A stretch of DNA of 64,000 nucleotides from assembly GCF_015256775.1 (NCBI RefSeq), contig NZ_JABZLM010000006.1; one strand, 5' to 3'. A program made the position numbers and the translations under genes. Below the pieces are notes generated by a model. It had not been told where the DNA came from and made no database searches. It saw only the letters and a program-made list of their open reading frames with translations. The DNA is from Solobacterium sp. (GTDB taxonomy: Bacteria; Bacillota_I; Bacilli_A; Erysipelotrichales; Erysipelotrichaceae). Of this stretch, positions 2,859-46,808 are shown one piece after another; positions within the stretch are counted from its first letter, which is position 1; each line of letters begins with the position of its first letter.

Positions 2859-3560
2859 TTACATTCCTTGGATATTTGCTTTTTTTATTCTGCTCATTAG
2901 TACTGGAACCATCAATAAGCAGACAATCATCGTTACTAAGTTATACCAAAGATTATAACCTAGGGAGAACGTCCACGCTGGTAAGCTTCCAGCTGCAGTG
3001 CCCTCTGCCCAGAAATACGCACCGGAAATAACCGTAGAGAAGTACTTGATGATCATTACAATCACAATACCGAAATGACCTTTTGTGCTTGTTAGGAATA
3101 GGCCTAATGCAATGACCAAGGCTGCTAATACAATGCCAGCTACTAGAGCCATTAAATTCATACCGTAAGAGTAATATACAGCAGCACATGCAGATAAACC
3201 AATTAAAGATACCACAGTTAATACAATGGGTTTGCTTGCATGTTCAAAAGGCTTAAAGAGCGAAACCATTCCAACAATACTGATTGGTAGCACGTAGTCT
3301 AATAGAATCTGTATTGGTTGAACAAAATACATTGGAAAACCTAATACAATTGTTAGTAAGAATGAAGCTAGTCCACACAGAACTCCATACTTCCAACCAA
3401 GATGATACGATGCAATCATCAGTGGAATTAACTCCAGTTCAATAGATCCACCATTTGGCATCTGTAGGAAAGGTATCATATTTCCTACCATTTTTAGCGC
3501 TACATATAACGCCATGTAGATTGCCATGAACGCAATCGTTTTAATCTGATCGTTTTTCAT
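2859..3560 (-). CDS. ECF transporter S (substrate-specific) component, thiamine or thiamine-precursor family (ThiT/YkoE-like)
   Basis: Small polytopic membrane protein directly downstream of a TPP riboswitch. Start MKNDQIK with GGAGG 9 nt upstream. The track ORF extends to 3662 but that part overlaps the riboswitch. Confidence 0.55.
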   Translation of the reverse strand: MKNDQIKTIAFMAIYMALYVALKMVGNMIPFLQMPNGGSIELELIPLMIASYHLGWKYGVLCGLASFLLTIVLGFPMYFVQPIQILLDYVLPISIVGMVSLFKPFEHASKPIVLTVVSLIGLSACAAVYYSYGMNLMALVAGIVLAALVIALGLFLTSTKGHFGIVIVMIIKYFSTVISGAYFWAEGTAAGSLPAWTFSLGYNLWYNLVTMIVCLLMVPVLMSRIKKANIQGM

Positions 3561-3574
3561 AAAAAATACACCTC

Positions 3575-3680
3575 CATTTTGAAGGCGCAAGGAATTAAAA
3601 CCTGAACTCCCTACGCTAGCTTTACCTAGATCAGGTGATAAGGGTTTTTTCTCAGCATGCATGCACCCCTGTTCACGAGT
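3575..3680 (-). promoter_or_regulatory. TPP (thiamine pyrophosphate) riboswitch, THI element
   Basis: Minus-strand sequence reads GUGAACAGGGGUGC..GCUGAGA..ACCCUUAUCACCUGAUCUAGGUAAAGCUAGCGUAGGGAGUUCAG. It has the conserved GGGGUGC, CUGAGA and ACCUGAUCU(A/G)GxUAAUxCxAGCGUAGGGA blocks. P1 closes as UGAAC/GUUCA. Confidence 0.85.
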
Positions 3681-25750: not shown

Positions 25751-27442
25751 TTATGCAAAGTTATATTCTGTCACAATTGGCTTTCTGCCCTCTGCCTTAT
25801 CTCTATAGTATTCATAGAAACTAATACCTAGATAAGAACCAGAAATATTGTAAACATTTGTATAGCCAAGCTTCTGTAATGCACAGATGACATTGTAACT
25901 ACGTTGTGAAGAACGACAGTGCAAGTATACAGGAACATCTGTAGGAATTTCACTGAGTCTTTCTCTAAACTGAGACATTGGAATATTCACCGCGTTAATC
26001 AGATGTCCCTTTTCAAACTCATCTGGTTCACGAACATCGATAATGCATGCATTATTTTCCACAAGCTCTCTTACTTTGTAAACTGGAACCTGTCTAAATT
26101 TATCATGTAAAAGATTTAGTCCTACAAGAGCTGTGTGATTCACAACATCCTTCGCTGTTGAGTAGTATGGGGAATAGCATAGCTCTAATTCCTTTAAGTC
26201 TTCAAGTGTTGCGTTCATACTAATCATAGCCGCAATCACATCGATTCTCTTATCTACACTACCCTTACCAACTGCCTGCGCTCCTAAGATTCTTCCCGTA
26301 GGCTTTTCAAAAATAAGCTTAAAGAAAAGTGGGTTACTATCTGGCATTAAGCCAACCTTATCTCCTGGGATTGTATACGCAAAGTCATAGTTATAACCGT
26401 GTTGTTGACAATCTTTTTCATTTAAACCTGTGTTTGCTACATTTAAGCCAAAGAGATGGATACAGCTTGAGCCAATAACACCTCTATTACTGTGTGTTTC
26501 ACCAAACATATGGTCAGCAGCAGCTCTTGCCTGTCTTTGTGCAGGTCCTGCAAGTGGAAGTCTAGTCTTATCATTTGTAAGTCTATTTGTAACTTCGATT
26601 GCGTCTCCTACTGCATAAATATCAGGATAGTTTGTCTGGTAGTTATAGTTTACTAAGATTGCCCCTGTCTTACCAAGCTCGATACCACAATCCTTCGCAA
26701 GCTTTGTCTCTGGCGCTACACCGATTGCCATAATCACAGCTTCAGCTGGAAGATGTTCTCCACTAGAGAGAACTACTTCACCTTCACCGACTTCTGTCAC
26801 TGTCTTTCCTAAATAAAGGTTAATACCATTATCAATAATTTCCTTGTGGAGAATCTGTGCCATATCTTCATCAAGAGGTTTCATAACCTGTGGTAAACCT
26901 TCCACTAGATTTACTTCTTTTCCTGCTTCGCGGAAATTCTCAGCCACTTCTAGACCAATAAAACCACCACCAACAACAGTTACCTTATTCACATTCTTCG
27001 CAGCTACATAAGCTTCAATCTTTTTAATGTCTGTAACATTCTTTACTACAAATACATTCTCACGGTCGATACCTTTAATTGAAGCCGGCAAGATTGCGTT
27101 CGCACCTGGTGAAAGTGCTAATTTATCATAACTTTCTGTAAAGCTTTCTCCAGTAACTAAATTCTTTACGACTACTTCTTTCTTGTCTGGATGAATCTCT
27201 GTAACCTCATGCTTTACCAAAGCCTTGATTCTGTACTTATTCCAGAACTCTTCTGGATTCATCAAAACTAGCTTATCGCTGTTATCAACGATTCCACTTA
27301 AAGCGAAAGGTAGGCAGCAGTTAGAGAAGGATACATTCTCTCCTCTTTCAAACATAATAACTTCTGCTGTTTCATCGATTCTTCTAGCTCTTGCGGCAAC
27401 ACTGGCACCACCAGCTACACCACCTATAACTACAATCTTCAT
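25751..27442 (-). CDS. CoA-disulfide reductase with C-terminal rhodanese domain (CoADR-RHD)
   Basis: FAD motif IVVIGGVAGG, an active-site Cys region (SFSNCC), a second NAD(P) motif VTVVGGGFIG, and a C-terminal rhodanese active-site loop CRSSQRS. Confidence 0.8.
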   Translation of the reverse strand: MKIVVIGGVAGGASVAARARRIDETAEVIMFERGENVSFSNCCLPFALSGIVDNSDKLVLMNPEEFWNKYRIKALVKHEVTEIHPDKKEVVVKNLVTGESFTESYDKLALSPGANAILPASIKGIDRENVFVVKNVTDIKKIEAYVAAKNVNKVTVVGGGFIGLEVAENFREAGKEVNLVEGLPQVMKPLDEDMAQILHKEIIDNGINLYLGKTVTEVGEGEVVLSSGEHLPAEAVIMAIGVAPETKLAKDCGIELGKTGAILVNYNYQTNYPDIYAVGDAIEVTNRLTNDKTRLPLAGPAQRQARAAADHMFGETHSNRGVIGSSCIHLFGLNVANTGLNEKDCQQHGYNYDFAYTIPGDKVGLMPDSNPLFFKLIFEKPTGRILGAQAVGKGSVDKRIDVIAAMISMNATLEDLKELELCYSPYYSTAKDVVNHTALVGLNLLHDKFRQVPVYKVRELVENNACIIDVREPDEFEKGHLINAVNIPMSQFRERLSEIPTDVPVYLHCRSSQRSYNVICALQKLGYTNVYNISGSYLGISFYEYYRDKAEGRKPIVTEYNFA

Positions 27443-34721: not shown

Positions 34722-34856
34722 TTTTATAACCTCTCACCAGTGAATTATAGCATATTACACGATTTTTTATATCTCTTCAATCGCATTCTATATACTTGAT
34801 TTCATTTACGAATCAAAGAAAAAATGCTAGTGTTAAAACCGAGAATACGAGGTTGT

Positions 34857-35405
34857 ATGAATAAATTTGTAAAACTATATATTTCCTGGTTTAAAATTGG
34901 TCTATTTACCTTCGGTGGTGGGTATGCAATGATTCCGATGATTCAAAAAGAAGTTGTTGATAAACATCATTGGGTGACGGCGGAAGATATCCTAAATTAC
35001 TATGCAATCAGCCAATGTACACCAGGCGCAATCGCAGTCAACTTATCCACATTCATCGGTGGAAAGATTGATGGTTTCCTTGGGGCGCTTATTTCCACAC
35101 TCGGTGTCATTACCCCATCTATTATTATCATTAGTATCATCGCAACTTTCTTATCCAACTTCTCCTCATTAGAAGTTGTAAAACACGCACTTGCCGGAAT
35201 ACAGATTGCTGTATGTGTGTTGATGTTTGGTGCAGTCAAAAACCTATTCAAAACAAGTATTATAGATATTCCAAGTCTACTTATCTGTCTAGTGGCATTC
35301 TTGCTAGCGTATTTCACTAACATTCCTACCGTCCTATTGGTAATATTGGCCGCAGTATTTGGCTATGTATTCTATACATATAAAAATAAGATTCACCTCA
35401 AATAA
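34857..35405 (+). CDS. chrA: chromate transporter ChrA, half-size (N-type half)
   Basis: FGGGYAMIPMIQKEVVDKHHW motif, the ChrA signature GGG..IP. About 180 aa. Confidence 0.75.
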   Translation: MNKFVKLYISWFKIGLFTFGGGYAMIPMIQKEVVDKHHWVTAEDILNYYAISQCTPGAIAVNLSTFIGGKIDGFLGALISTLGVITPSIIIISIIATFLSNFSSLEVVKHALAGIQIAVCVLMFGAVKNLFKTSIIDIPSLLICLVAFLLAYFTNIPTVLLVILAAVFGYVFYTYKNKIHLK

Positions 35406-35512
35406 GCAATTCTCTTTCACAACAATCTCTAAGATTGTTGTTTTTTATAGCCTTTTGGTTATATATAACTAACTTATCGTGTAAAATAGTCTATGCGAAA
35501 GGAATTCTAAAC

Positions 35513-37252
35513 ATGATAGATAAGAAACTTTTAGCCCTTTTAGGGCATAATAAAAAATATATATTCTATGCAGTTGGTCTTATGATAGTGGGTTTATTTG
35601 CTAATCTTGCAATCACCGCATCCATCTGTTATGCCATTCAATATGCTGCAGAATATACATCCTCTGGTAGTAATGCACAAGGGTTCATTCTACCGGCGGT
35701 GATTGTAATCATTGCGATGGCAATCCGTTATGTAACTTCTCGTAGTATTGGAGACTTGAAGGATACATTAGGAAGAAATGTGAAGAAGGATTTGCGCCAG
35801 AAAATCTATGACAAAATTATCAAGCTTGGTGTTCGTACTACCGACAATATGAGTATGGCTGGTTTAACACAGTTATCCATGGAAGGTGTTGAACAGTTAG
35901 ACCTATATTATTCCGCATATATTCCACAATTCTTTTATGCGATGATTGCTCCTATCATTTTGTTTATCGTCACTGTACGTATCAATTGGGCTGTTGCACT
36001 TGTATTACTTGCATGTGTACCACTCATTCCAATGTCCATTATTGCGGTATCCCGTTACGCAAAGAAAATCTTTGCGAAGTACTGGGGTAAATACACATCC
36101 ATGGGAGATAGTTTCCTAGATAGTGTACAAGGACTAAAAGAACTAAAGATCTTCCAAGCAGACGCTGCACAAAATATCAAGATGAACGAAACAAGCGAAG
36201 AATTCCGCAAGATTACGATGAAAGTATTAGTCATGCAGCTAGCTAGTACAACAATTATGGATATGGTTGCCTATGGTGGTGCTGGTCTTGGTATTGCGCT
36301 AACGATACTTGCCGTTGTAAACGGAAGTCTTTCTGCTTACGCAGCACTATTCTTAATTCTTGTAGCAGTAGACTTCTTCTTACCACTACGTGCATTCGGT
36401 TCTGCCTTCCATATTGCCATGAATGGTGCAAGTGCTGGCAATAAGATTCTATCCCTGCTTGCTCAACCAGATCCAGTATGGGGTAATGAAACAGTAGCTA
36501 GTACAGAAATTACAGTGAAGGATGTCACATTCTCTTATGATGGAAAACGTGATGTGTTAAAACATGCATCCATGAACTTTGGTTCAACTGGCATGTGCGC
36601 AATTGTTGGTGAATCCGGTTCAGGTAAGTCTACAGTTGTAAATTTATTGTTAGGTGCATATCATCCTCAACAAGGTTCTATTCTTGTTGGGAATAAACCT
36701 TTGGAAACATTAAGTAGAGAATCATACTATTCTCACATTTCAGTTGTAAGTTATAACACCTATATCTTTAATGAAACAATCCGTCAAAACTTTATGCTAG
36801 CCAAAGACAACGTTACAGACGAAGAAATCTATAGCGCACTTAAGAAAGTAAATCTATATGATTTTATTATCGATAACGGCGGTCTAGATAAAGTCATTAC
36901 AGAAGACGCCGCAAATATTTCTGGTGGACAGAAACAACGACTAGCACTTGCAATTAATCTAGTTGCAAACAAAGATATATACATCTTCGATGAAGCCACG
37001 AGTAATATTGATATTGAAAGTGAAGCAATTATCATGAATAACATCAAGGAACTCTCCAAAGAGAAATCCGTTATCGTTATTTCACATCGTTTAGCAAATG
37101 TCATTGCGGCTGATACCATCTATTACATCGAAGATGGAGAAGTTAAAGAACATGGTACACACAATGAACTCATGAACATGCATGAAGGTTATGCAAAACT
37201 ATATACAGCGCAAAAGAACTTAGAAGATGGCTATACGGAGGTGATCGCATGA
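35513..37252 (+). CDS. ABC exporter fused permease/ATPase (CydD/CydC-like heterodimer partner 1)
   Basis: 6-TM domain, then Walker A GESGSGKST, signature ISGGQKQRL and Walker B IYIFDEAT. Start at MIDKK (AAAGGA RBS). The track ORF starts at 35435. Confidence 0.75.
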   Translation: MIDKKLLALLGHNKKYIFYAVGLMIVGLFANLAITASICYAIQYAAEYTSSGSNAQGFILPAVIVIIAMAIRYVTSRSIGDLKDTLGRNVKKDLRQKIYDKIIKLGVRTTDNMSMAGLTQLSMEGVEQLDLYYSAYIPQFFYAMIAPIILFIVTVRINWAVALVLLACVPLIPMSIIAVSRYAKKIFAKYWGKYTSMGDSFLDSVQGLKELKIFQADAAQNIKMNETSEEFRKITMKVLVMQLASTTIMDMVAYGGAGLGIALTILAVVNGSLSAYAALFLILVAVDFFLPLRAFGSAFHIAMNGASAGNKILSLLAQPDPVWGNETVASTEITVKDVTFSYDGKRDVLKHASMNFGSTGMCAIVGESGSGKSTVVNLLLGAYHPQQGSILVGNKPLETLSRESYYSHISVVSYNTYIFNETIRQNFMLAKDNVTDEEIYSALKKVNLYDFIIDNGGLDKVITEDAANISGGQKQRLALAINLVANKDIYIFDEATSNIDIESEAIIMNNIKELSKEKSVIVISHRLANVIAADTIYYIEDGEVKEHGTHNELMNMHEGYAKLYTAQKNLEDGYTEVIA

Positions 37253-38937
37253 CAAACGAGAGATATGTCCGCCGTAGTGGTGCTGTGATTATGGCAAGTC
37301 TTATTACCTTGCTAGGTTCACTAGCATACATTATGATTCTTGCTGTAATAAACGGTTCTGTAGGTTTCATTGTCGCCATGGGTGTAACTCTCATGGGTGC
37401 AGTTGGCATTGCCAAATCACTTGGGGAAGCAATCCCTCTCTCTTATGGCGCAATCATTGCCTTAACAATCGGTTTTGGTATATTACGTGGTTTCTTACGT
37501 TACCTTGAACAATACAGTAACCACTACATCGCATTTAAGCTACTAGCTGTATTACGTGACAAGATTTTCCGTGCATTACGTATTCTTTGTCCTGCAAAAC
37601 TTGAAAGCAAGCAAAAAGGCGCAATCATCTCAATGATTACAGCCGATATTGAAACATTAGAAGTATTCTACGCGCATACGATTTCTCCAATCTGTATTGC
37701 GGTAATCGTCTCAACCTGCGTTACGTTATTTGTTGGATTTACAGTAAACTGGTATCTCGCATTAATCGCATTACTTGGATATCTTTCAATCGGTATTATT
37801 GTTCCAATGATTTCTTCTAGCAGATTAAAAGAATCTGGTGTTCGTTATCGTGCTGAATTTGCTTCCTTTAACGCTTACTTCTTAGATAGTATTAAGGGTA
37901 TTAAGGATATCGTGCTTATGCACGCACAAGATCAGCGTAAAGATGAAGTAAACAAACGTTCTGATTCACTTCTTCTTGAAACAAAAAAGATGAAGCACGA
38001 TACAGCGAAAGCGACTGCAGAAACAGAACTAAGCGTTTCAATCTTCATCATCCTTACATTAATTGTAGGTATTATCCTAGTCGCAAATAACAATCTAACA
38101 ATCGGTAAGATGTTAATCGGTGTAACAGCAGTATTTGGATCATTCGGACCAGTTATTGCTATCTCTGCACTACCAGGCAACTTAACACAGACATTTGCAT
38201 CTGGTGACCGTGTACTGAACTTACTATCAGAAAAACCAGCAGTAACACCAATCACAGAAGCTAAAGATTTTACATTCGAAAACTTAGAAGTAAATCACCT
38301 ATCTTTCTCATATGATGGACAAATACAGGTACTAAAAGATATCTCTATACATGCAAAGACTGGTGAGATTGTTGGTATCGTCGGTGAGTCTGGCTGTGGT
38401 AAATCAACATTCCTAAAACTATTACTTCGATTCTGGCAAAAAGAAACAGGAGATATCCTCTACAACGGCATCGATATTAACGATATTAATACAGATAGTT
38501 TATTATCGAATGCCACAATGGTAAGCCAAACAACATATCTCTTTGATGATACGGTTGAAGAAAACCTTCGTATCGCTAAACCAAAAGCTACGTTAGAGGA
38601 AATTCAAGATGCATGCCGTATGGCATCTGTCCATGACTTTATCATGACGCTACCAGATGGCTACCAAAGCAAAGTCGGAACACTTGGAGATAATCTTTCT
38701 GCAGGCGAAAAACAACGCATTGGATTAGCCCGTGCATTTCTACGTGGTAGTAAGTTAATCTTGTTGGATGAACCTACAAGTAACGTAGATAGTATCAACG
38801 AGGGTATTATTCTTAAATCTCTAAAACAGCAAAAACACGATAAATGCATTATTTTGGTATCCCATCGTGAATCTACAATGGCAATCGCTGACCGCATCTA
38901 TCGTGCATCAGAAGGTGTCATGCATGAACAAAATTGA
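37249..38937 (+). CDS. ABC exporter fused permease/ATPase (CydD/CydC-like heterodimer partner 2)
   Basis: TM domain, then GESGCGKST, LSAGEKQRI and ILLDEPTS. Overlaps the previous gene by 4 nt. Confidence 0.75.
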   Translation: MTNERYVRRSGAVIMASLITLLGSLAYIMILAVINGSVGFIVAMGVTLMGAVGIAKSLGEAIPLSYGAIIALTIGFGILRGFLRYLEQYSNHYIAFKLLAVLRDKIFRALRILCPAKLESKQKGAIISMITADIETLEVFYAHTISPICIAVIVSTCVTLFVGFTVNWYLALIALLGYLSIGIIVPMISSSRLKESGVRYRAEFASFNAYFLDSIKGIKDIVLMHAQDQRKDEVNKRSDSLLLETKKMKHDTAKATAETELSVSIFIILTLIVGIILVANNNLTIGKMLIGVTAVFGSFGPVIAISALPGNLTQTFASGDRVLNLLSEKPAVTPITEAKDFTFENLEVNHLSFSYDGQIQVLKDISIHAKTGEIVGIVGESGCGKSTFLKLLLRFWQKETGDILYNGIDINDINTDSLLSNATMVSQTTYLFDDTVEENLRIAKPKATLEEIQDACRMASVHDFIMTLPDGYQSKVGTLGDNLSAGEKQRIGLARAFLRGSKLILLDEPTSNVDSINEGIILKSLKQQKHDKCIILVSHRESTMAIADRIYRASEGVMHEQN

Positions 38938-39265
38938 AGAAAAACGTCAACGTGAGATTTCTATCGTCACAAAGATGATTGAAGTCTATTGTAGGAAGAA
39001 ACACGGCACAAAAGATGGTCTTTGTCCTGAATGCCAGGAGTTACTTGATTACGCTACAACGCGCAGTAACCACTGCCCATTTATGGAGACAAAAACCTTC
39101 TGTGCAAACTGCCGTGTACATTGCTACAAACCAGAAATGAGAGAAAGAATTAAAAATGTGATGCGCTTTTGCGGTCCAAGAATGTTGTTATATTATCCAC
39201 TCGCAACAATTCGACATCTCATCGAAAGTATCAAAGAGAAAAGAAAACTGGAGAAACAGAAATGA
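38924..39265 (+). CDS. nitrous-oxide-stimulated promoter (YgbA) family protein
   Basis: Cys pattern CRKKHG..CPECQ...CPFMETKTFCANCRVHCYKPEMRE, characteristic of the YgbA family. About 113 aa. Confidence 0.6.
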   Translation: MNKIEEKRQREISIVTKMIEVYCRKKHGTKDGLCPECQELLDYATTRSNHCPFMETKTFCANCRVHCYKPEMRERIKNVMRFCGPRMLLYYPLATIRHLIESIKEKRKLEKQK

Positions 39266-39704: not shown

Positions 39705-40274
39705 ATGGCAAATTTTTTATTGTTATGCTGGGAATTCTTTAAAACCGGTTTATTCTCCATCGGCGGTGGACTTGCAACAATCCCCTTCTTACAGGAGATG
39801 TCATTAAAATATGGATGGTTTAGTCTAACAGACTTAACGACCATGGTCGCTATCAGCGAGTCAACACCTGGACCAATGGGTGTCAATATGGCAACCTATG
39901 TAGGGAATCACGTATACGGTTTCTTCGGTGGTATCGCTACAACTCTATCTGTTACAGCACCAGCATTTCTATCTATTATTCTGATTGCAACAGCACTTCA
40001 AAAATTCGAAGACTCTGTGATTGTACAAAATGCATTTATGGGCTTAAGACCTGCAGTAGTTGGTTTAATTACATCTGCCGTCATAGGTATCTATTTACTT
40101 GCATTATTTGATATTACTGCATTTCAAACAACAAAATCTCTTTTAAGTTTATTTAAGTGGAAGCCTATTATCATATTTGCATGCATGTTAACTGTTTATC
40201 ACTTTAAACCAAAGACACATCCAATACTATTTATTATCGCAGCCGCAATCATTGGAATCTTATTTAAACTATAA
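39705..40274 (+). CDS. chrA: chromate transporter ChrA, half-size (second half)
   Basis: IGGGLATIPFLQEMSLKYGW motif. 189 aa. Confidence 0.75.
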   Translation: MANFLLLCWEFFKTGLFSIGGGLATIPFLQEMSLKYGWFSLTDLTTMVAISESTPGPMGVNMATYVGNHVYGFFGGIATTLSVTAPAFLSIILIATALQKFEDSVIVQNAFMGLRPAVVGLITSAVIGIYLLALFDITAFQTTKSLLSLFKWKPIIIFACMLTVYHFKPKTHPILFIIAAAIIGILFKL

Positions 40275-40786
40275 TTATGGTTAAACAATCAGCTTAATAA
40301 CTATGCACTTTTCGGCACTGATAAGACCACAGAGTAAGACATACATCTTTCCTACCATCTACCTGCCTCAATTGAGATTCGTGACCCTCGAACCAGCAGT
40401 TTGCCTAGTTCTTTCTTCAGATTCCACCTCACGATGGAAATCCTTGAATTCGGCTCAACCTTAGGGACTACATTCCTTGGTTAGAGGTACCTTTCAACCT
40501 CCAAGATATATACCATGTCTGGCACACCAAGAAAAAACCTACAGAATCTTTCGATATACGCAAAGAAAATGCATGTGTATAAAAAGTGACCGAACCGATG
40601 GAGGTTCAAAGACATTGATGCATGTATTCGACAGATTTGAGGATACGGATTTGATTACAGAACTACTGGAAGGTATGTATACGGAATTGCACGAAAAGAA
40701 ACCTATAAAATTCGTACGAATACTGTAGGGTAAGAAAAGACGTCTTTCTCTATACTAAAATATGCCGAACGAAAGAGGGAATCAAA

Positions 40787-41880: not shown

Positions 41881-42576
41881 TTATTGAATATCTTTTACTG
41901 AACGTACTTCATAGATTCCATCACAGAATAATCCATTCACTTGATGTCCACCTTTTAATGTATAGAAGGTATCTAATGGAGCTCCCATTTTATTACTGAA
42001 TGTTTCTACCCTATAACAGATTGGATAGAAATAATAAGTTATCACTCGATCACTAGCCGGTACATACTGCACTCTTTCTAAATCGAGAGAGATTTGTAGT
42101 TTAGTGTTGAAGCCAATTATCTTCTGCAACAACGACTGCATTTGAACATTATCATTTTCAAAATTTGTCGTATCGTCTGTACCAGATATTGTAATCACTT
42201 CACCCGTCGTTACTCTAAAAGATGGCGTAATTTGGATTGGTGATAGTATTACTTCGTTAAGAGAAATTTGTTGATCATCAATAAAATAATTTACATAAAG
42301 TTTTAATGATAACTCACTCGGATTAATCGGATTGCATTCCATATCATAAAACTGTGATGTATCAGAAGATACTAAATCATTCTGATTAATTTCATGTAGT
42401 TCGGACAATTTGTATGCATATCCAGATTCTTCTTCAACTTGTGTTACTTCATTACTCGAAGTTACTTCTTGACTTACTTGTCTTCGAGTAGAACAACCTG
42501 CTAGCGAACACGAAAATGATGCAATTAATATTATCGGAATCGTCTTTTTCATAGTCACCTCCAAATGATTCTTCAT
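41881..42576 (-). CDS. hypothetical lipoprotein
   Basis: Signal peptide with lipobox SLAGCS. 231 aa. No family recognised. Confidence 0.5.
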   Translation of the reverse strand: MKNHLEVTMKKTIPIILIASFSCSLAGCSTRRQVSQEVTSSNEVTQVEEESGYAYKLSELHEINQNDLVSSDTSQFYDMECNPINPSELSLKLYVNYFIDDQQISLNEVILSPIQITPSFRVTTGEVITISGTDDTTNFENDNVQMQSLLQKIIGFNTKLQISLDLERVQYVPASDRVITYYFYPICYRVETFSNKMGAPLDTFYTLKGGHQVNGLFCDGIYEVRSVKDIQ

Positions 42577-42702
42577 TTACTGACAAATCCGTAAAGTCCT
42601 ATGATTTTATCTGTAATTACATTATAGCACTACCCCCCCATAATAAAACCCTGGGACATAAGCCCAGGGAAAAGAAGGGAAAACCACAATATGTTGTTAA
42701 TG

Positions 42703-43590
42703 TTATTTGCTAGCTTTTGCGCTTGCTTCTGCGATTTGTTTTTCAATCTCAGAAATCATCTTGATATCTTCTTCAAGTGTCTTTAATTCATCTTCGGAGA
42801 AGGAAGCCTTGTTTGCTTCAACTTGTGCCTTTAATACTTCGTCATATGGCATACTCTGTGTTTGCTCAATCTGATCCTTGGACATTGTTGCGAATACTTT
42901 ATTCCAGATATCTTGATGCTTGCCGAATACTTCGCTTTCCTTTGCATAAAGATCTGTTAATTCATCATTTGCTCCTGCAGACTGTCCTTCAGTTACTGTT
43001 GTTGTAACACCGCTTCCAGATTTCACTTCTTCAATCATCTTGATGATTTCTTCTTGTTTCTTTTCATCTTCTAAGTTACCAACGATTGGATCACCAACGA
43101 TGTTACCATTCTTATCAACCATAACTGTTGTAGGGAAACTGAAGATCTTAGCTAGGTAAGCCTTCGCATCATCACCACCATTGATGACGATATTTCTATA
43201 TGTAGCACCTTGCTTTGATAGAATATCCTTTGCGTCTTTGAGAGTAGCTTCATCTGTTGCTTCTACGTTAACACCAACGATTTCTGCACCATGTTCCTTT
43301 AACTTCTTATTAAACTTTTCAAGCGCTGGCATTTCATTTACACATGCTGCACATCCATTGAACCAGAAGTTTACAAGTGTTACTTCATTCTTGCTGAATA
43401 AGGATTCATCTACATCCTTACCATCGAAATCCTTACCTTTAAACTTTGGGAATGCTTCTACGTTAGCTGTTTCAGTTGTTGTAGATGTTGTTGTCGTTGC
43501 TTTGTCTTCTTTCTTGTTGTTGCATGCTGCTAATGTAACTGCCATAACTGCTGCTACACCAACTAGGGTAAATCTCTTGAACAAATTCAT
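42703..43590 (-). CDS. TlpA/ResA-like thiol-disulfide oxidoreductase lipoprotein with a roughly 120-aa helical C-terminal extension
   Basis: Lipobox LAACNN. Thioredoxin-fold active site WFNGCAACVNEMP. 295 aa is long for TlpA. Confidence 0.65.
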   Translation of the reverse strand: MNLFKRFTLVGVAAVMAVTLAACNNKKEDKATTTTSTTTETANVEAFPKFKGKDFDGKDVDESLFSKNEVTLVNFWFNGCAACVNEMPALEKFNKKLKEHGAEIVGVNVEATDEATLKDAKDILSKQGATYRNIVINGGDDAKAYLAKIFSFPTTVMVDKNGNIVGDPIVGNLEDEKKQEEIIKMIEEVKSGSGVTTTVTEGQSAGANDELTDLYAKESEVFGKHQDIWNKVFATMSKDQIEQTQSMPYDEVLKAQVEANKASFSEDELKTLEEDIKMISEIEKQIAEASAKASK

Positions 43591-43611
43591 TTTCTTTTTC
43601 CTCTTTCTGTT

Positions 43612-44529
43612 TTATGCCTTTTGTAAATTCTTATTTGTTACTTTTGGATTCTTAGCGTCACTCTTTTTCTTAATCGCTAAGTAAGTACTGATAGCTTTGG
43701 TTGGACATGCAGTAATGCATTCTCCACAACGGATACATTCCAAGTCACCAGTATTCTTTGTAATATCGACATCCATCTTACAAACTCTTGCACACTTACC
43801 ACAGGATACACACTTGTTTTTATCTACGTTGTAGTTGAAGATTGCAATCTTGTTGAATAATGCATAGAATGCTCCAAGTGGACAAATCCATTTGCAGAAT
43901 GGACGATATACAAATATTGATAATGTTGTAATCGTGATGAGAATTGTAAACTTCCAGGTAAATAATGTACCTAATGTTGCACGAATGTTTTTATCTACGA
44001 TAGAGAGTGGAATACCACCTTCCAAGATACCTTGTGGACAAATGTATTTGCAGAAGTAAGGTAATGCAATACCTGCTTTATTTGTCATAATGATTGGAAG
44101 TAATATAACTGCTACAGCGAGAATAATAAACTTTGTATATGTTAAGAATCTTAATTTCTTCGTACTAAACTTCTTTGTTGGAATCTTATGTAATAAATCT
44201 TGATACCAACCAAATGGGCACATGAATCCACAGATCAACCTTCCAATCATCACACCAAAGAAAATTAGAATTCCACTGATGTAATAGGAGAAGTTATACT
44301 TGGATGAACCGACAACCGCTTGGAAGGAGCCTACTGGGCACGCTCCTGTAGCAGCTGGACATGAATAACAGTTTAAACCTGGTACACATACCTGCTTAAT
44401 TTTTCCATTATAGAGAACACCTTTGAAAAAGTTAGGGATATGCATGTTTGTTAGGAATGTCGCAAACATCTGAATTGTATTACGTCTCTTCAGGAATTTT
44501 AGAAACGCTCTTGATTTAGCTGATGTCAT
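43612..44529 (-). CDS. NapH/MauN-like membrane-bound 4Fe-4S polyferredoxin
   Basis: N-terminal CYSCPAATGACP motif, internal TM helices, and C-terminal ferredoxin motifs CVSCGKCARVC and CIRCGECITACP. Confidence 0.65.
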   Translation of the reverse strand: MTSAKSRAFLKFLKRRNTIQMFATFLTNMHIPNFFKGVLYNGKIKQVCVPGLNCYSCPAATGACPVGSFQAVVGSSKYNFSYYISGILIFFGVMIGRLICGFMCPFGWYQDLLHKIPTKKFSTKKLRFLTYTKFIILAVAVILLPIIMTNKAGIALPYFCKYICPQGILEGGIPLSIVDKNIRATLGTLFTWKFTILITITTLSIFVYRPFCKWICPLGAFYALFNKIAIFNYNVDKNKCVSCGKCARVCKMDVDITKNTGDLECIRCGECITACPTKAISTYLAIKKKSDAKNPKVTNKNLQKA

Positions 44530-44531
44530 AA

Positions 44532-44696
44532 CTATCCAATTCCTACACACTCCAAACAAAGACGAATTGCTTTGCCGAATACACTTTCAACTTCTCCACG
44601 AGAAGCCCCAACACAAATAAATACAATTGCTAGTACTATTAGAAATGCCTGTGTAGCAATTCTAAATTGTGTAGGATATTTATTTATTAAATCCAT
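44532..44696 (-). CDS. small (about 54 aa) single-TM membrane protein with a C-terminal CLEC motif
   Basis: Start MDLINK preceded by AAGGAGG at 8 nt. Its stop abuts the polyferredoxin start. Hydrophobic stretch AFLIVLAIVFICVGA. Confidence 0.45.
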   Translation of the reverse strand: MDLINKYPTQFRIATQAFLIVLAIVFICVGASRGEVESVFGKAIRLCLECVGIG

Positions 44697-44956
44697 TGCA
44701 TTGTCCTCCTTTACACTCATTTTCTATCTGACGTGAAAAATATAACAAAGCAGATATAAAATTTGTGTTAAGAAATTTAACAATGTAATTTTTCTGATTT
44801 CATTCATCATCATGCCTGCATAAACACTCGTTTTTAGTATAGGAATGGCTTATCTTGTTTTCTTTTGTATGTGCTATACTTGGTACAGATATACTCAGCT
44901 TCCAACAATGTGTTGGATGTTCTTCTGACAATTAGTAACAATATGAAAGGAACATT

Positions 44957-45643
44957 TTGCATATGAGAATATTAGTGGTTGAAGATGAAATCGCCCTTTG
45001 TGAAACAATCGCAAAGGGTTTACGTCTTGATGGATATGAAGTAGACACATGTTTTGATGGTGGTACAGCTTGGAATATGGCAATGGATGAAAGTTATGAC
45101 TTGATCATCCTAGATTTAAACTTACCTATCATGGATGGAATGGAAGTACTCCGTAATCTTCGTAAAGAAGATTCAGAAACGGCTGTATTAATTCTATCTG
45201 CACGTGGACATTTACAGGATAAGATTGATGGTCTCGATAGCGGTGCCAATGACTACCTATGCAAACCATTCCACTTTGAGGAGTTAGAAGCACGCGTTCG
45301 TAGTCTAACAAGAAGACGCACCGTACAAAATAATGTCATTCTCTCCTGTGGAGAACTTTCATTAGACACCAAGAGTCGAACGGTTATGGCTAAAGGTGAA
45401 AAGCTTCCATTAACACGTAAAGAGTTAGGAGTATTGGAGTACTTATTACTACATCAAGAACGTCCAGTCCCACAAGAGGAACTCATCCAACATGTTTGGG
45501 ATAGTAGTGTTGATAGCTTTAGTAATTCTATTCGTGTGCACATCTCCGCTTTGCGTAAGAAATTACGAGCTGCACTTGGCTATGACCCTATCACAAATCG
45601 CATAGGCCAAGGGTATGTCATCGGAGGACAACAAGATGAATAA
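44957..45643 (+). CDS. OmpR-family response regulator
   Basis: Receiver domain (acidic pocket EDE; phospho-acceptor Asp in LIILDLNLP; conserved K in LCKPF) plus a winged-helix output domain. Confidence 0.85.
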   Translation: MHMRILVVEDEIALCETIAKGLRLDGYEVDTCFDGGTAWNMAMDESYDLIILDLNLPIMDGMEVLRNLRKEDSETAVLILSARGHLQDKIDGLDSGANDYLCKPFHFEELEARVRSLTRRRTVQNNVILSCGELSLDTKSRTVMAKGEKLPLTRKELGVLEYLLLHQERPVPQEELIQHVWDSSVDSFSNSIRVHISALRKKLRAALGYDPITNRIGQGYVIGGQQDE

Positions 45644-46778
45644 ACGTCGTTCTCTACAGTGGAAACTCACCGTCATTACCGCAATTATCGTCATCCTATC
45701 CTGTCTTGCGATTAGTTATGCAATCAGTAAGTCCGCAATCTCCTCGATGAGTAAGATTGAAGATTCCGCAGTTGCGATATTACCAACTAGCCCTGCAACA
45801 GATACAACTGGAGAAGTTGTACAACTACAGATTTCTACCAAAGATGTCATCTCTGATATGGCAAAAGGAATTCAAGCTGATTTCTGGAAAAGTAGTTTAC
45901 TCATTACAATCATCATTACTGTCGCAAGTAGCTCTATGATGTACTTCTTCATCGGTTATGCATTAAAGCCTCTACAAAATCTCGGTGAACAGATTGAAGA
46001 CATCCAAGCAAAAAACTTAAAACATTTAGTTGTAAGTGATCAAAGTTCTATTGAAATTGAACAACTAACAAACGCATTTAATGAGATGTTAGAACGACTC
46101 AGTAATACCTTCGCAGCACAACGGCAATTCTCCGCAAACGCTGCACATGAATTACGTACACCGCTTGCGGTAATGCGTACAAAGCTGGAAGTATTTGAGA
46201 AAAACAACAATCCTAGTGCTGCGGAGTATCAAGAAACCGTCCATATGATTCGTATGCAGACATCACGTCTATCACATGTCATTGATATTCTTCTTGAGAT
46301 GACAGACCTACAATCGGCCCAAAAACAAGATCGTATCTCATTAGCCGATATGGCTGAAGAAGTCATTTGTGATTTAACAGCAGTCGCAGATAAGAAAGAA
46401 ATTACTATCACCCAAAATCCAGGGACTGCTGAAATCATCGGTAATGATACCCTTATCTACCGTGCTATCTATAACCTTGTGGAAAATGCCATCAAGTATA
46501 ACCATACCGGTGGAAATGTAACTGTATCCATCAAGGAAGATGGTGAATTTGCGACTGTTATCGTCAGTGATAATGGCCCTGGTATCCAACAAGAAGATTG
46601 GCAACACATCTTTGAACCCTTCTTTAGAGTTGATAAATCACGTAGCCGTGATATGGGTGGTGCTGGTCTTGGCCTTGCCCTTGTAAAAGAGATTGCCCGC
46701 CAACATGGTGGTGATGTATATGTCGTACAAAGCTCAAAAAACGGTACAGAAATCGCACTTAAACTGCGTCGAAAGTAA
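45615..46778 (+). CDS. sensor histidine kinase
   Basis: 2 TM helices. H-box AAHELRTPL, N box (NAIKYN), G1 DNGPGI and G2 GGAGLGL. Confidence 0.85.
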   Translation: MSSEDNKMNKRRSLQWKLTVITAIIVILSCLAISYAISKSAISSMSKIEDSAVAILPTSPATDTTGEVVQLQISTKDVISDMAKGIQADFWKSSLLITIIITVASSSMMYFFIGYALKPLQNLGEQIEDIQAKNLKHLVVSDQSSIEIEQLTNAFNEMLERLSNTFAAQRQFSANAAHELRTPLAVMRTKLEVFEKNNNPSAAEYQETVHMIRMQTSRLSHVIDILLEMTDLQSAQKQDRISLADMAEEVICDLTAVADKKEITITQNPGTAEIIGNDTLIYRAIYNLVENAIKYNHTGGNVTVSIKEDGEFATVIVSDNGPGIQQEDWQHIFEPFFRVDKSRSRDMGGAGLGLALVKEIARQHGGDVYVVQSSKNGTEIALKLRRK

Positions 46779-46783
46779 CCAAT

Positions 46784-46808
46784 AGTCGCTTGATTGGCGA
46801 CTTTTTCA
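46784..46808 (+). terminator. rho-independent terminator (agtcgc-ttgattg-gcgact, then TTTTT)
   Basis: Direct reading downstream of the kinase gene. Confidence 0.6.

Follow-up and report, generated by a model that had tools for sequence, protein, structure and literature searches.

To our knowledge, DsbD, CcdA and ScsB, all of them fed by thioredoxin, are the sole established bacterial routes by which reducing power crosses the membrane to thioredoxin-like proteins. A stretch of 64,000 nucleotides from Solobacterium sp. (contig NZ_JABZLM010000006.1 of assembly GCF_015256775.1), referred to in the following as the window, raises the question whether anaerobes also use a route of a different kind. 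In this window the gene of a TlpA/ResA-type lipoprotein is part of an operon that encodes a membrane polyferredoxin and a membrane peptide of 54 amino acids, next to the genes of a two-component system. A preliminary description of the locus had suggested an alternative transmembrane electron route to an extracellular thiol-disulfide oxidoreductase, and the synteny, the predicted topology and the linkage to MsrAB described here lend support to this suggestion. We hold it to be moderately probable that the locus represents a self-contained, horizontally mobile module for envelope thiol reduction in strict anaerobes, in which the peptide and the polyferredoxin would replace CcdA/DsbD.

The operon is located on the minus strand in the order peptide, polyferredoxin, TlpA-like lipoprotein, with the regulator and kinase genes divergent from it. 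Its first gene (44532..44696) encodes the 54-residue micro-protein of the CD1871A family and is preceded by AGGAGG, 8 nt 5' of the start codon. A gap of 2 nt separates the TAG stop codon of the peptide gene from the ATG of the polyferredoxin gene (43612..44529; 305 residues), and another 21 nt, with a ribosome-binding site within, lie between the latter and the gene of the 295-residue thioredoxin-fold lipoprotein (42703..43590). An intrinsic-terminator-like hairpin, CCCTGGG...CCCAGGG followed by a T run (42649..42669, minus strand), is found at the 3' end of the operon. On the plus strand, an OmpR/PhoB-family response regulator (44957..45643; Pfam Response_reg and Trans_reg_C) is followed by a sensor histidine kinase with two transmembrane helices (45615..46778; Pfam HAMP, HisKA and HATPase_c), and a terminator-like hairpin 3' of the kinase gene (46784..46802, plus strand) forms the right-hand boundary of the module, before tmk. 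All five genes were found where the preliminary description had placed them, with small corrections only. The polyferredoxin begins at the ATG at 44529 and not with the TTG of the listed 315-residue open reading frame, a start that we prefer because WP_294022926.1, an exact match to the 305-residue sequence, has the same form. In all, six proteins of the window are identical to NCBI entries of Solobacterium, a member of the Erysipelotrichaceae. The true starts of the regulator and the kinase are probably the ATG codons at 44963 and 45636, respectively.

In order to assess how constant this arrangement is, we compared 83 related loci, of which a scan of one genome per species contributed 80 and exact look-ups three; some flank and promoter counts were taken over 84 loci. 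The scan itself returned at least 598 confirmed matching species genomes. The peptide gene lies directly upstream of the polyferredoxin gene in 83/83 loci, and the TlpA-like gene directly downstream in 82/83, the exception being a truncated contig of 2.6 kb; the pair of polyferredoxin and TlpA-like genes, on the conservation of which the earlier idea partly hinged, is thus conserved. The regulator gene is adjacent in 75 of the 83 loci and the kinase gene in 72, and while the placement of the two-component genes varies (divergent, upstream or downstream), their adjacency to the operon is maintained. Since the gene order recurs in 83/83 related loci, chance adjacency of the cassette genes is excluded. 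The hosts belong to the Clostridia, Erysipelotrichia, Tissierellia and Coriobacteriia and include one metagenome-assembled genome of a Fusobacterium, with polyferredoxin identities of 57-76% across the matches listed.

What surrounds the cassette is otherwise unrelated from locus to locus. We counted 146 Pfam families among the 140 nearest neighbours, and the flanking genes of the window are shared by no other of the 83 loci, another Solobacterium included. In C. difficile 630, the trio CD1871 (thioredoxin/Redoxin), CD1871a (small transmembrane protein) and CD1872 (iron-sulfur membrane polyferredoxin) is located in an accessory module of CTn5 (CD1845-CD1878a), an element that was shown to excise and transfer (PMC3158075, Table S1). 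This is the same trio as in the window, and CD1871a gives the CD1871A family its name; unlike the window copy, which is chromosomal, lies beside tmk/holB and has its own two-component system, the CTn5 copy adjoins an ATP-binding cassette (ABC) transporter and has only been annotated. Because the gene set is constant, the flanks differ and the trio is present in CTn5, the cassette is, judged by these comparisons, a discrete unit, which at least one mobile element carries along. A search of plasmids yielded one full-length relative only, on a megaplasmid of Peptoclostridium (P. acidaminophilum), where a 49%-identical polyferredoxin has its start overlapped by a CD1871A peptide annotated by the Prokaryotic Genome Annotation Pipeline (PGAP); the TlpA gene is 2 kb away and there is no two-component system. 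A link to phages or defence was considered and dropped, with no PADLOC hits and a single locus in 2.9 million viral contigs. We likewise set aside the presence of the cassette in Bacteroidota, which two loci labelled Phocaeicola dorei / Bacteroidaceae (L016 and L063) had suggested. For L016 the label is probably a binning error and not a sign of cross-phylum transfer, because the flanks of the cassette are of the Firmicutes type (a DnaB_2-domain replication protein, an IstB/DnaA-type AAA ATPase, SecA, Lit and TsaD).

Judged by its N-terminal signal, which ends in the lipobox LAAC (Cys23), the TlpA-like protein is extracytoplasmic. It passed the Pfam thresholds for Redoxin (56.2 bits) and AhpC-TSA (56.8 bits) and stays below the equivalog cut-offs of ResA (54.7 versus 170), TlpA (54 versus 230) and StoA (39 versus 210); no resBC, ccm or sco genes were seen near it in the window or among the 140 locus neighbours. 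Its active site WFNGCAACVNEMP (C80-A-A-C83-V-N-E86-M-P88) aligns with CKPCEKEMP of ResA and CVPCRKEMP of TlpA (consensus CxxCxxEMP), and the active-site residues as well as Cys23 are invariant in an alignment of 34 homologues. The top Foldseek matches of a structure model, which reached a predicted local distance difference test (pLDDT) score of 71, were ResA, TlpA, StoA and pneumococcal Etrx2, all of them spanning only the thioredoxin domain of approximately 145 residues. The helical C-terminal extension reported in the preliminary description is present, at a length of about 105 and not 120 residues (approximately 190-295, five predicted helices); it has no counterpart among the fold-search matches and is kept in 66 of the 83 loci. 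An apparent member of the TlpA cluster with 375 residues (P0272) was excluded as an unrelated lipoprotein.

The peptide, noted earlier as a tiny transmembrane protein with a CLEC motif, indeed has a single transmembrane helix and is a member of NCBIfam NF040920 (CD1871A family CXXC motif-containing protein; 58.8 bits, cut-off 32). A short basic N-terminus precedes the helix, and the C-terminus reads ...LCLECVGIG-COOH. An alignment of 77 distinct homologues shows that the tail, RGExxxVxxKAIxLCxECxGIG-COOH, is near-invariant. As the N-terminal flank is more positively charged than the tail (net charge +2.4 and +0.5, respectively), the sequence favours an orientation with the N-terminus inside, the C-terminus outside and the CXXC motif thus on the outer face. 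An exhaustive search of 1.84 billion representatives, sequences without genomic context, grouped the relatives of the peptide into 299 clusters at 50% identity; a word-indexed search retrieved 16 proteins only. The sole clear fusion among the 150 best relatives is a metagenomic protein of 256 residues (P0371), in which a CD1871A-type C-terminal module ending in ...NICTECIGLG is joined to an N-terminal domain with several predicted transmembrane helices.

The polyferredoxin consists of four predicted transmembrane helices (TM1 to TM4) and a C-terminal 2x[4Fe-4S] ferredoxin domain, and matches Pfam Fer4_5 over two stretches as well as Fer4_7 and Fer4. Eighteen cysteines are invariant or nearly so in an alignment of 65 sequences. 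The two 4Fe-4S motifs reported earlier are present as two CxxCxxCxxxCP motifs at residues 240-250 and 265-275; what had been read as "CxxCP...GxCP" is in reality a conserved four-cysteine loop between TM1 and TM2 (C48, C54, C57 and C64; CX5CX2CX6C), and three CX3CP motifs had been overlooked. The first of these (C100/C104) follows TM2, the second (C160/C164) lies between TM3 and TM4 and the third (C212/C216) follows TM4. Lysine and arginine are frequent at the N-terminus (0.36 per residue), in loop 2 (0.22) and in the C-terminal domain (0.17), and rare in loop 1 (0.07) and loop 3 (0.09). Charge and hydropathy together point to a protein of four helices with both termini inside. By the positive-inside rule, this distribution of charge would place the ferredoxin domain and CX3CP motifs 1 and 3 in the cytoplasm, and the four-cysteine loop and CX3CP motif 2, six cysteines in total, on the outside. 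In three metagenomic homologues (P0002, P0069 and P0099; 328-431 residues) the N-terminal part is internally duplicated, either the four-cysteine loop alone or the loop together with TM2 and its CX3CP motif, which could reflect tandem duplication or an assembly artefact.

The nearest described relatives of this architecture are NapH, NosR and RdhC, which carry a four-helix module with two CX3CP motifs that feeds extracytoplasmic redox partners and for whose CX3CP pairs a role as redox-active disulfides is suspected (PMC5928378). The polyferredoxin has in common with NapH, the C-terminal part of NosR and RdhC (PceC) the four helices and the CX3CP motifs after TM2 and TM4, and with NapH and NosR also the cytoplasmic pair of [4Fe-4S] motifs at the C-terminus. 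It differs from them by the additional CX3CP motif in the TM3-TM4 loop and the CX5CX2CX6C loop between TM1 and TM2, by its CXXC peptide partner, and by its client, a thiol-disulfide oxidoreductase instead of a nitrate or N2O reductase or a dehalogenase, without nap, nos or rdh context. Its scores fall far below the cut-offs of the NapH families (65.2 versus 213.05 for TIGR02163, NapH/MauN; 57.4 versus 234 for NF007013, NapH), and no nap (napA/napG/napF) or mau genes were found among the window genes examined or the 140 nearest locus neighbours. Going by these features, the protein is NapH-like and not a NapH, and the possibility raised at the outset that it groups with the NapH of nitrate-reductase operons is not borne out by these scores and neighbours.

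A phmmer search with a CcdA probe found no CcdA/DsbD-like open reading frame in the window or within 8 kb on either side of any of the 84 loci, so that no canonical CcdA was detected nearby, in line with the earlier idea. In the window, the membrane proteins scanned with Pfam and NCBIfam, a set that left out four large permease-like open reading frames of 444, 441, 436 and 343 residues, gave no match to DsbD_TM. In 5 of the 83 loci, the next gene after the TlpA-like one, on the same strand, encodes a lipoprotein MsrAB (PMSR and SelR domains); these loci come from a Solobacterium, a Clostridium sp., Flintibacter, a Coriobacteriaceae genome and one short contig. As MsrAB is a consumer of reductant, its position favours a reductive pathway. 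Taken together with the ResA/TlpA-type active site and the absence of a detected CcdA, this linkage leads us to favour a pathway in which the peptide and the polyferredoxin stand in for CcdA.

The cassette appears to carry its own control. The promoter region of the operon (44739..44782, minus strand) contains the box TTCTTAAC (44774..44767), followed by TTTTAT and an extended -10-like element, TGTTATATT, at approximately 44747..44739. With at most one mismatch, TTCTTAAC occurs 5' of the peptide gene in 57 of the 84 loci and across phyla, in constant register to TTTA and TATAAT-like -10 elements, and we infer that it is a putative binding site of the cognate response regulator. The conserved box fits the earlier proposal that the OmpR/histidine kinase pair may regulate the operon. 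In an alignment of 68 kinase homologues, the outer loop of approximately 55 residues varies and lacks conserved His, Met or Cys residues; at least 80% of the sequences share, at residues ~14-30, an N-terminal SLQW(R/K) motif and a cysteine in the first transmembrane helix. This pattern of conservation suggests that the kinase senses within the membrane, possibly via a complex of peptide and polyferredoxin, and it may be an intramembrane redox sensor.

From these elements a pathway can be proposed. Couples of the ResA/TlpA type lie near -250 to -340 mV, which is within reach of ferredoxin and iron-sulfur clusters and not of menaquinol. Because only the former could reduce such a couple, we regard the cytoplasmic 2x[4Fe-4S] domain as the likely entry point of electrons, with reduced ferredoxin or flavodoxin as the most likely low-potential donor. 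The polyferredoxin would relay the electrons via cysteine pairs that border the membrane, CX3CP motifs 1 and 3 on the inner side and CX3CP motif 2 with the four-cysteine loop on the outer side, to the outward CXXC at the C-terminus of the CD1871A peptide, which would act as an obligate small subunit. From there they would pass to the CXXC of the ResA/TlpA-type lipoprotein and on to oxidised envelope proteins, the target in some genomes being the co-encoded lipoprotein MsrAB. Peptide and polyferredoxin would in this way fill the role of CcdA/DsbD, fed by iron-sulfur clusters and ferredoxin instead of thioredoxin. The kinase and regulator would turn on the operon through the TTCTTAAC box, probably in response to oxidative or thiol stress at the membrane, which the kinase would sense via its conserved transmembrane part and not via the variable outer loop. 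The direction of electron flow, the donor, the signal and the targets are inferences from gene content, motifs, predicted topology and synteny.

Several observations weigh against this pathway. Loop 1 lies outside only if TM1 is a true membrane helix, and TM1 is only weakly hydrophobic (mean Kyte-Doolittle value +0.64), which makes it the weakest link of the topology. The AlphaFold2 model of the polyferredoxin, built with 65 homologues, is poor (pLDDT 56), so that the geometry of the cysteines is not readable, and it was set aside for fold searches; all retrievable homologues are more than 60% identical, and no deeper alignment for modelling was possible. A sequence search of the PDB with the polyferredoxin matched the C-terminal two-cluster domain only, with no solved structure over the membrane part, and the module holds no evident cofactor to carry electrons through the bilayer. 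The CcdA probe itself passes the Pfam threshold of DsbD_TM at 46.5 bits only, which limits the sensitivity of that search, and its reach was the window and the locus flanks. Finally, MsrAB adjoins the cassette in only those five loci and is not encoded in the window, and the best family match of the kinase is to heavy-metal sensors, which is taken up below.

Electrons might also flow in the opposite direction, the lipoprotein acting as an oxidant that makes disulfides in secreted proteins, like DsbA, SdbA or MdbA, while the peptide and polyferredoxin re-oxidise it in the manner of DsbB or VKOR and deliver electrons to cytoplasmic iron-sulfur acceptors in quinone-less anaerobes. The direction in which a CXXC protein works is not fixed by its sequence alone, and most loci lack an obvious reductase client. 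DsbB and VKOR are membrane proteins with cysteine pairs in loops that face an extracytoplasmic thioredoxin-fold partner and with a membrane-associated cofactor, a layout that the polyferredoxin recalls; however, they are oxidants that use quinones, share no sequence or fold relationship with it and differ from it in that it has iron-sulfur clusters. The active site of the lipoprotein is of the CxxCxxEMP reductant type, its fold has no DsbA-like helical insert, the operonic MsrAB consumes reductant, and transfer from a disulfide couple to low-potential [4Fe-4S] clusters would run uphill, all of which makes an oxidative pathway unlikely. A donor other than ferredoxin is conceivable as well: in the case of a NapH-like quinol dehydrogenase, membrane menaquinol would supply the surface thioredoxin-like protein, as quinol oxidation has been proposed for NapH, with which the polyferredoxin has the four-helix CX3CP module in common and to whose families it gives weak matches. 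Menaquinol is far too oxidising for a ResA/TlpA-type disulfide. Together with the low NapH scores and with the invariant cytoplasmic 2x[4Fe-4S] domain, which would be left without a role, this makes quinol a most improbable donor. Quinone synthesis is probably missing in many of the host lineages.

The two-component system bears on two further explanations. The kinase matches best the heavy-metal sensor kinases TIGR01386 (CusS/CopS; 216.1 bits), and the second-best family of the regulator is CusR (TIGR01387; 184.7 bits), as might be the case in a module against copper or other metal stress, in which the polyferredoxin would act as a cupric reductase like CcoG, Cu(I) would be handled or copper-induced disulfides repaired by the TlpA-like protein and the CXXC of the peptide, much as by ScsD or TlpA-ScoI, and the kinase would sense metal. 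Cu(I) is classically bound by CXXC motifs, the fold search with the TlpA-like model also returned TlpA-ScoI complexes, and the polyferredoxin matches CcoG and Fer4_18 weakly. All these scores, however, lie under the family cut-offs (292.55 for the kinase, 279.2 for the regulator, and 29.4 versus 316.7 for the polyferredoxin against CcoG/FixG TIGR02745, where one iron-sulfur motif was matched only), FixG_C, the C-terminal domain of CcoG, was not found in the polyferredoxin, and CopA, CopZ or Sco genes do not recur among the locus neighbours. Direct metal sensing is also disfavoured by the variable outer loop of the kinase, in which no His, Met or Cys is conserved, and we judge a metal module to be rather improbable. 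A similarly low probability attaches to the idea that the peptide is no electron carrier at all and instead a redox-sensitive regulator of the kinase, as MgrB is of PhoQ, or a factor for assembly or stability of the polyferredoxin, which would then contact the TlpA-like protein directly. Small membrane peptides with outward cysteines are known as kinase regulators, and conservation of the kinase in its first helix and the SLQWR motif suggests sensing within the membrane through a partner. Yet loci without adjacent two-component genes, such as L004, L034, L070 and L084, also have the peptide gene directly upstream of the polyferredoxin gene; in the window the two genes are 2 nt apart. A regulatory role of the peptide could coexist with one as electron carrier.

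The proposed reductive pathway has parallels in systems in which CcdA supplies the electrons, namely CcdA1/2-Etrx1/2-MsrAB2 of S. pneumoniae (PMC3914529) and ModRS-Trx-CcdA-MsrAB of F. nucleatum, where a two-component system is adjacent (PMC9239216). As in these, a thioredoxin-fold reductase of the ResA/TlpA/Etrx class, surface-bound or periplasmic, is encoded beside its membrane electron supplier, and the cassette resembles the ModRS system also in its adjacent two-component genes; an MsrAB client is often encoded there as well. In contrast, the membrane part of the cassette is an unrelated iron-sulfur polyferredoxin with a micro-peptide, the likely donor is ferredoxin or iron-sulfur clusters and not cytoplasmic thioredoxin, and MsrAB is linked to the cassette in a minority of loci. 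A chemical precedent can be seen in ferredoxin:thioredoxin reductase and heterodisulfide reductase, in which a [4Fe-4S] cluster turns the one-electron chemistry of ferredoxin into two-electron disulfide reduction; these enzymes are soluble or face the cytoplasm and show no detected homology, whereas the cassette would react across the membrane. The families themselves are already annotated and the trio was listed among the CTn5 accessory genes in 2011. Our literature search gave no match for "CD1871A" and no paper linking a polyferredoxin with TlpA, CcdA, DsbD or MsrAB, and we found none that proposes or tests the pathway. What appears to be new among envelope thiol-reducing pathways is thus a membrane component that is based on iron-sulfur clusters and unrelated to the known ones.

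Other features of the window were recorded in passing. Directly 3' of the operon terminator lies the gene of a 231-residue lipoprotein (41881..42576, minus strand) with no Pfam, NCBIfam or PADLOC family match and with no homologue adjoining the cassette in any of the 83 loci. Further upstream in window coordinates, 3.8 kb from the TlpA-like gene, is an ABC exporter pair (35435..37252 and 37249..38937, plus strand) whose best NCBIfam matches are CydD (381 bits, cut-off 435) and CydC (312 bits, cut-off 329). It could serve another envelope-redox function and is not consistently linked to the cassette elsewhere; an ABC exporter that recurs in the locus flanks was rejected as a partner, being of a generic family and resembling the CydDC-like pair of the window in 2 loci only. 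The pair lies between two half-size ChrA-like chromate-transporter genes approximately 4.3 kb apart (34824..35405 and 39705..40274, plus strand), together with a YgbA-like cysteine-rich protein of the "nitrous oxide-stimulated promoter family" (38867..39265) and a DUF454 protein. In the gap of about 500 bp between the ChrA-like and AraC/GyrI-like genes, and approximately 2.3 kb from the cassette, Rfam group-II-D1D4-3 matches at 40339..40438 (minus strand; 57.6 bits, gathering score 32); with no D5/D6 match or reverse-transcriptase open reading frame nearby, this looks like the remnant of a group II intron. A 563-residue pyridine nucleotide-disulfide oxidoreductase with a C-terminal rhodanese domain (25751..27442, minus strand) has an architecture of the CoA-disulfide/persulfide reductase type. 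Lastly, a thiamine pyrophosphate (TPP) riboswitch (3591..3680, minus strand; 73.1 bits) is found at the 5' end of an open reading frame of the YuaJ/ThiT thiamine-transporter family (2859..3662, minus strand), and because the two overlap, the true start of this gene is probably downstream of the listed ATG.

If true, an alternative to DsbD/CcdA/ScsB made of iron-sulfur clusters and a micro-peptide would amount to a new mechanism. A very common protein annotated as "4Fe-4S binding protein" and the CD1871A peptides, an orphan family, would acquire a function, and the CX3CP motifs of the NapH/NosR/RdhC superfamily, long without explanation, a concrete role. More tentatively, the cassette may stand for a third, iron-sulfur-based class of transmembrane disulfide reductase, unrelated to DsbD and CcdA, that connects the low-potential ferredoxin pool of strict anaerobes directly to surface thiol repair. 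It would be a plug-in cassette with its own sensor and regulator; transfer by conjugative elements, CTn5 among them, would distribute it among Clostridia, Erysipelotrichia, Tissierellia, Coriobacteriia and Fusobacteria, and with it a tolerance of oxygen or host oxidants in the communities of gut and mouth. For genetic work, C. difficile CTn5 is a tractable starting point. Since the cassette is compact, self-regulated, widespread among human-associated anaerobes of gut and mouth and, as in C. difficile, present on a transferable element, it is a candidate determinant of oxidative-stress tolerance and host colonisation.

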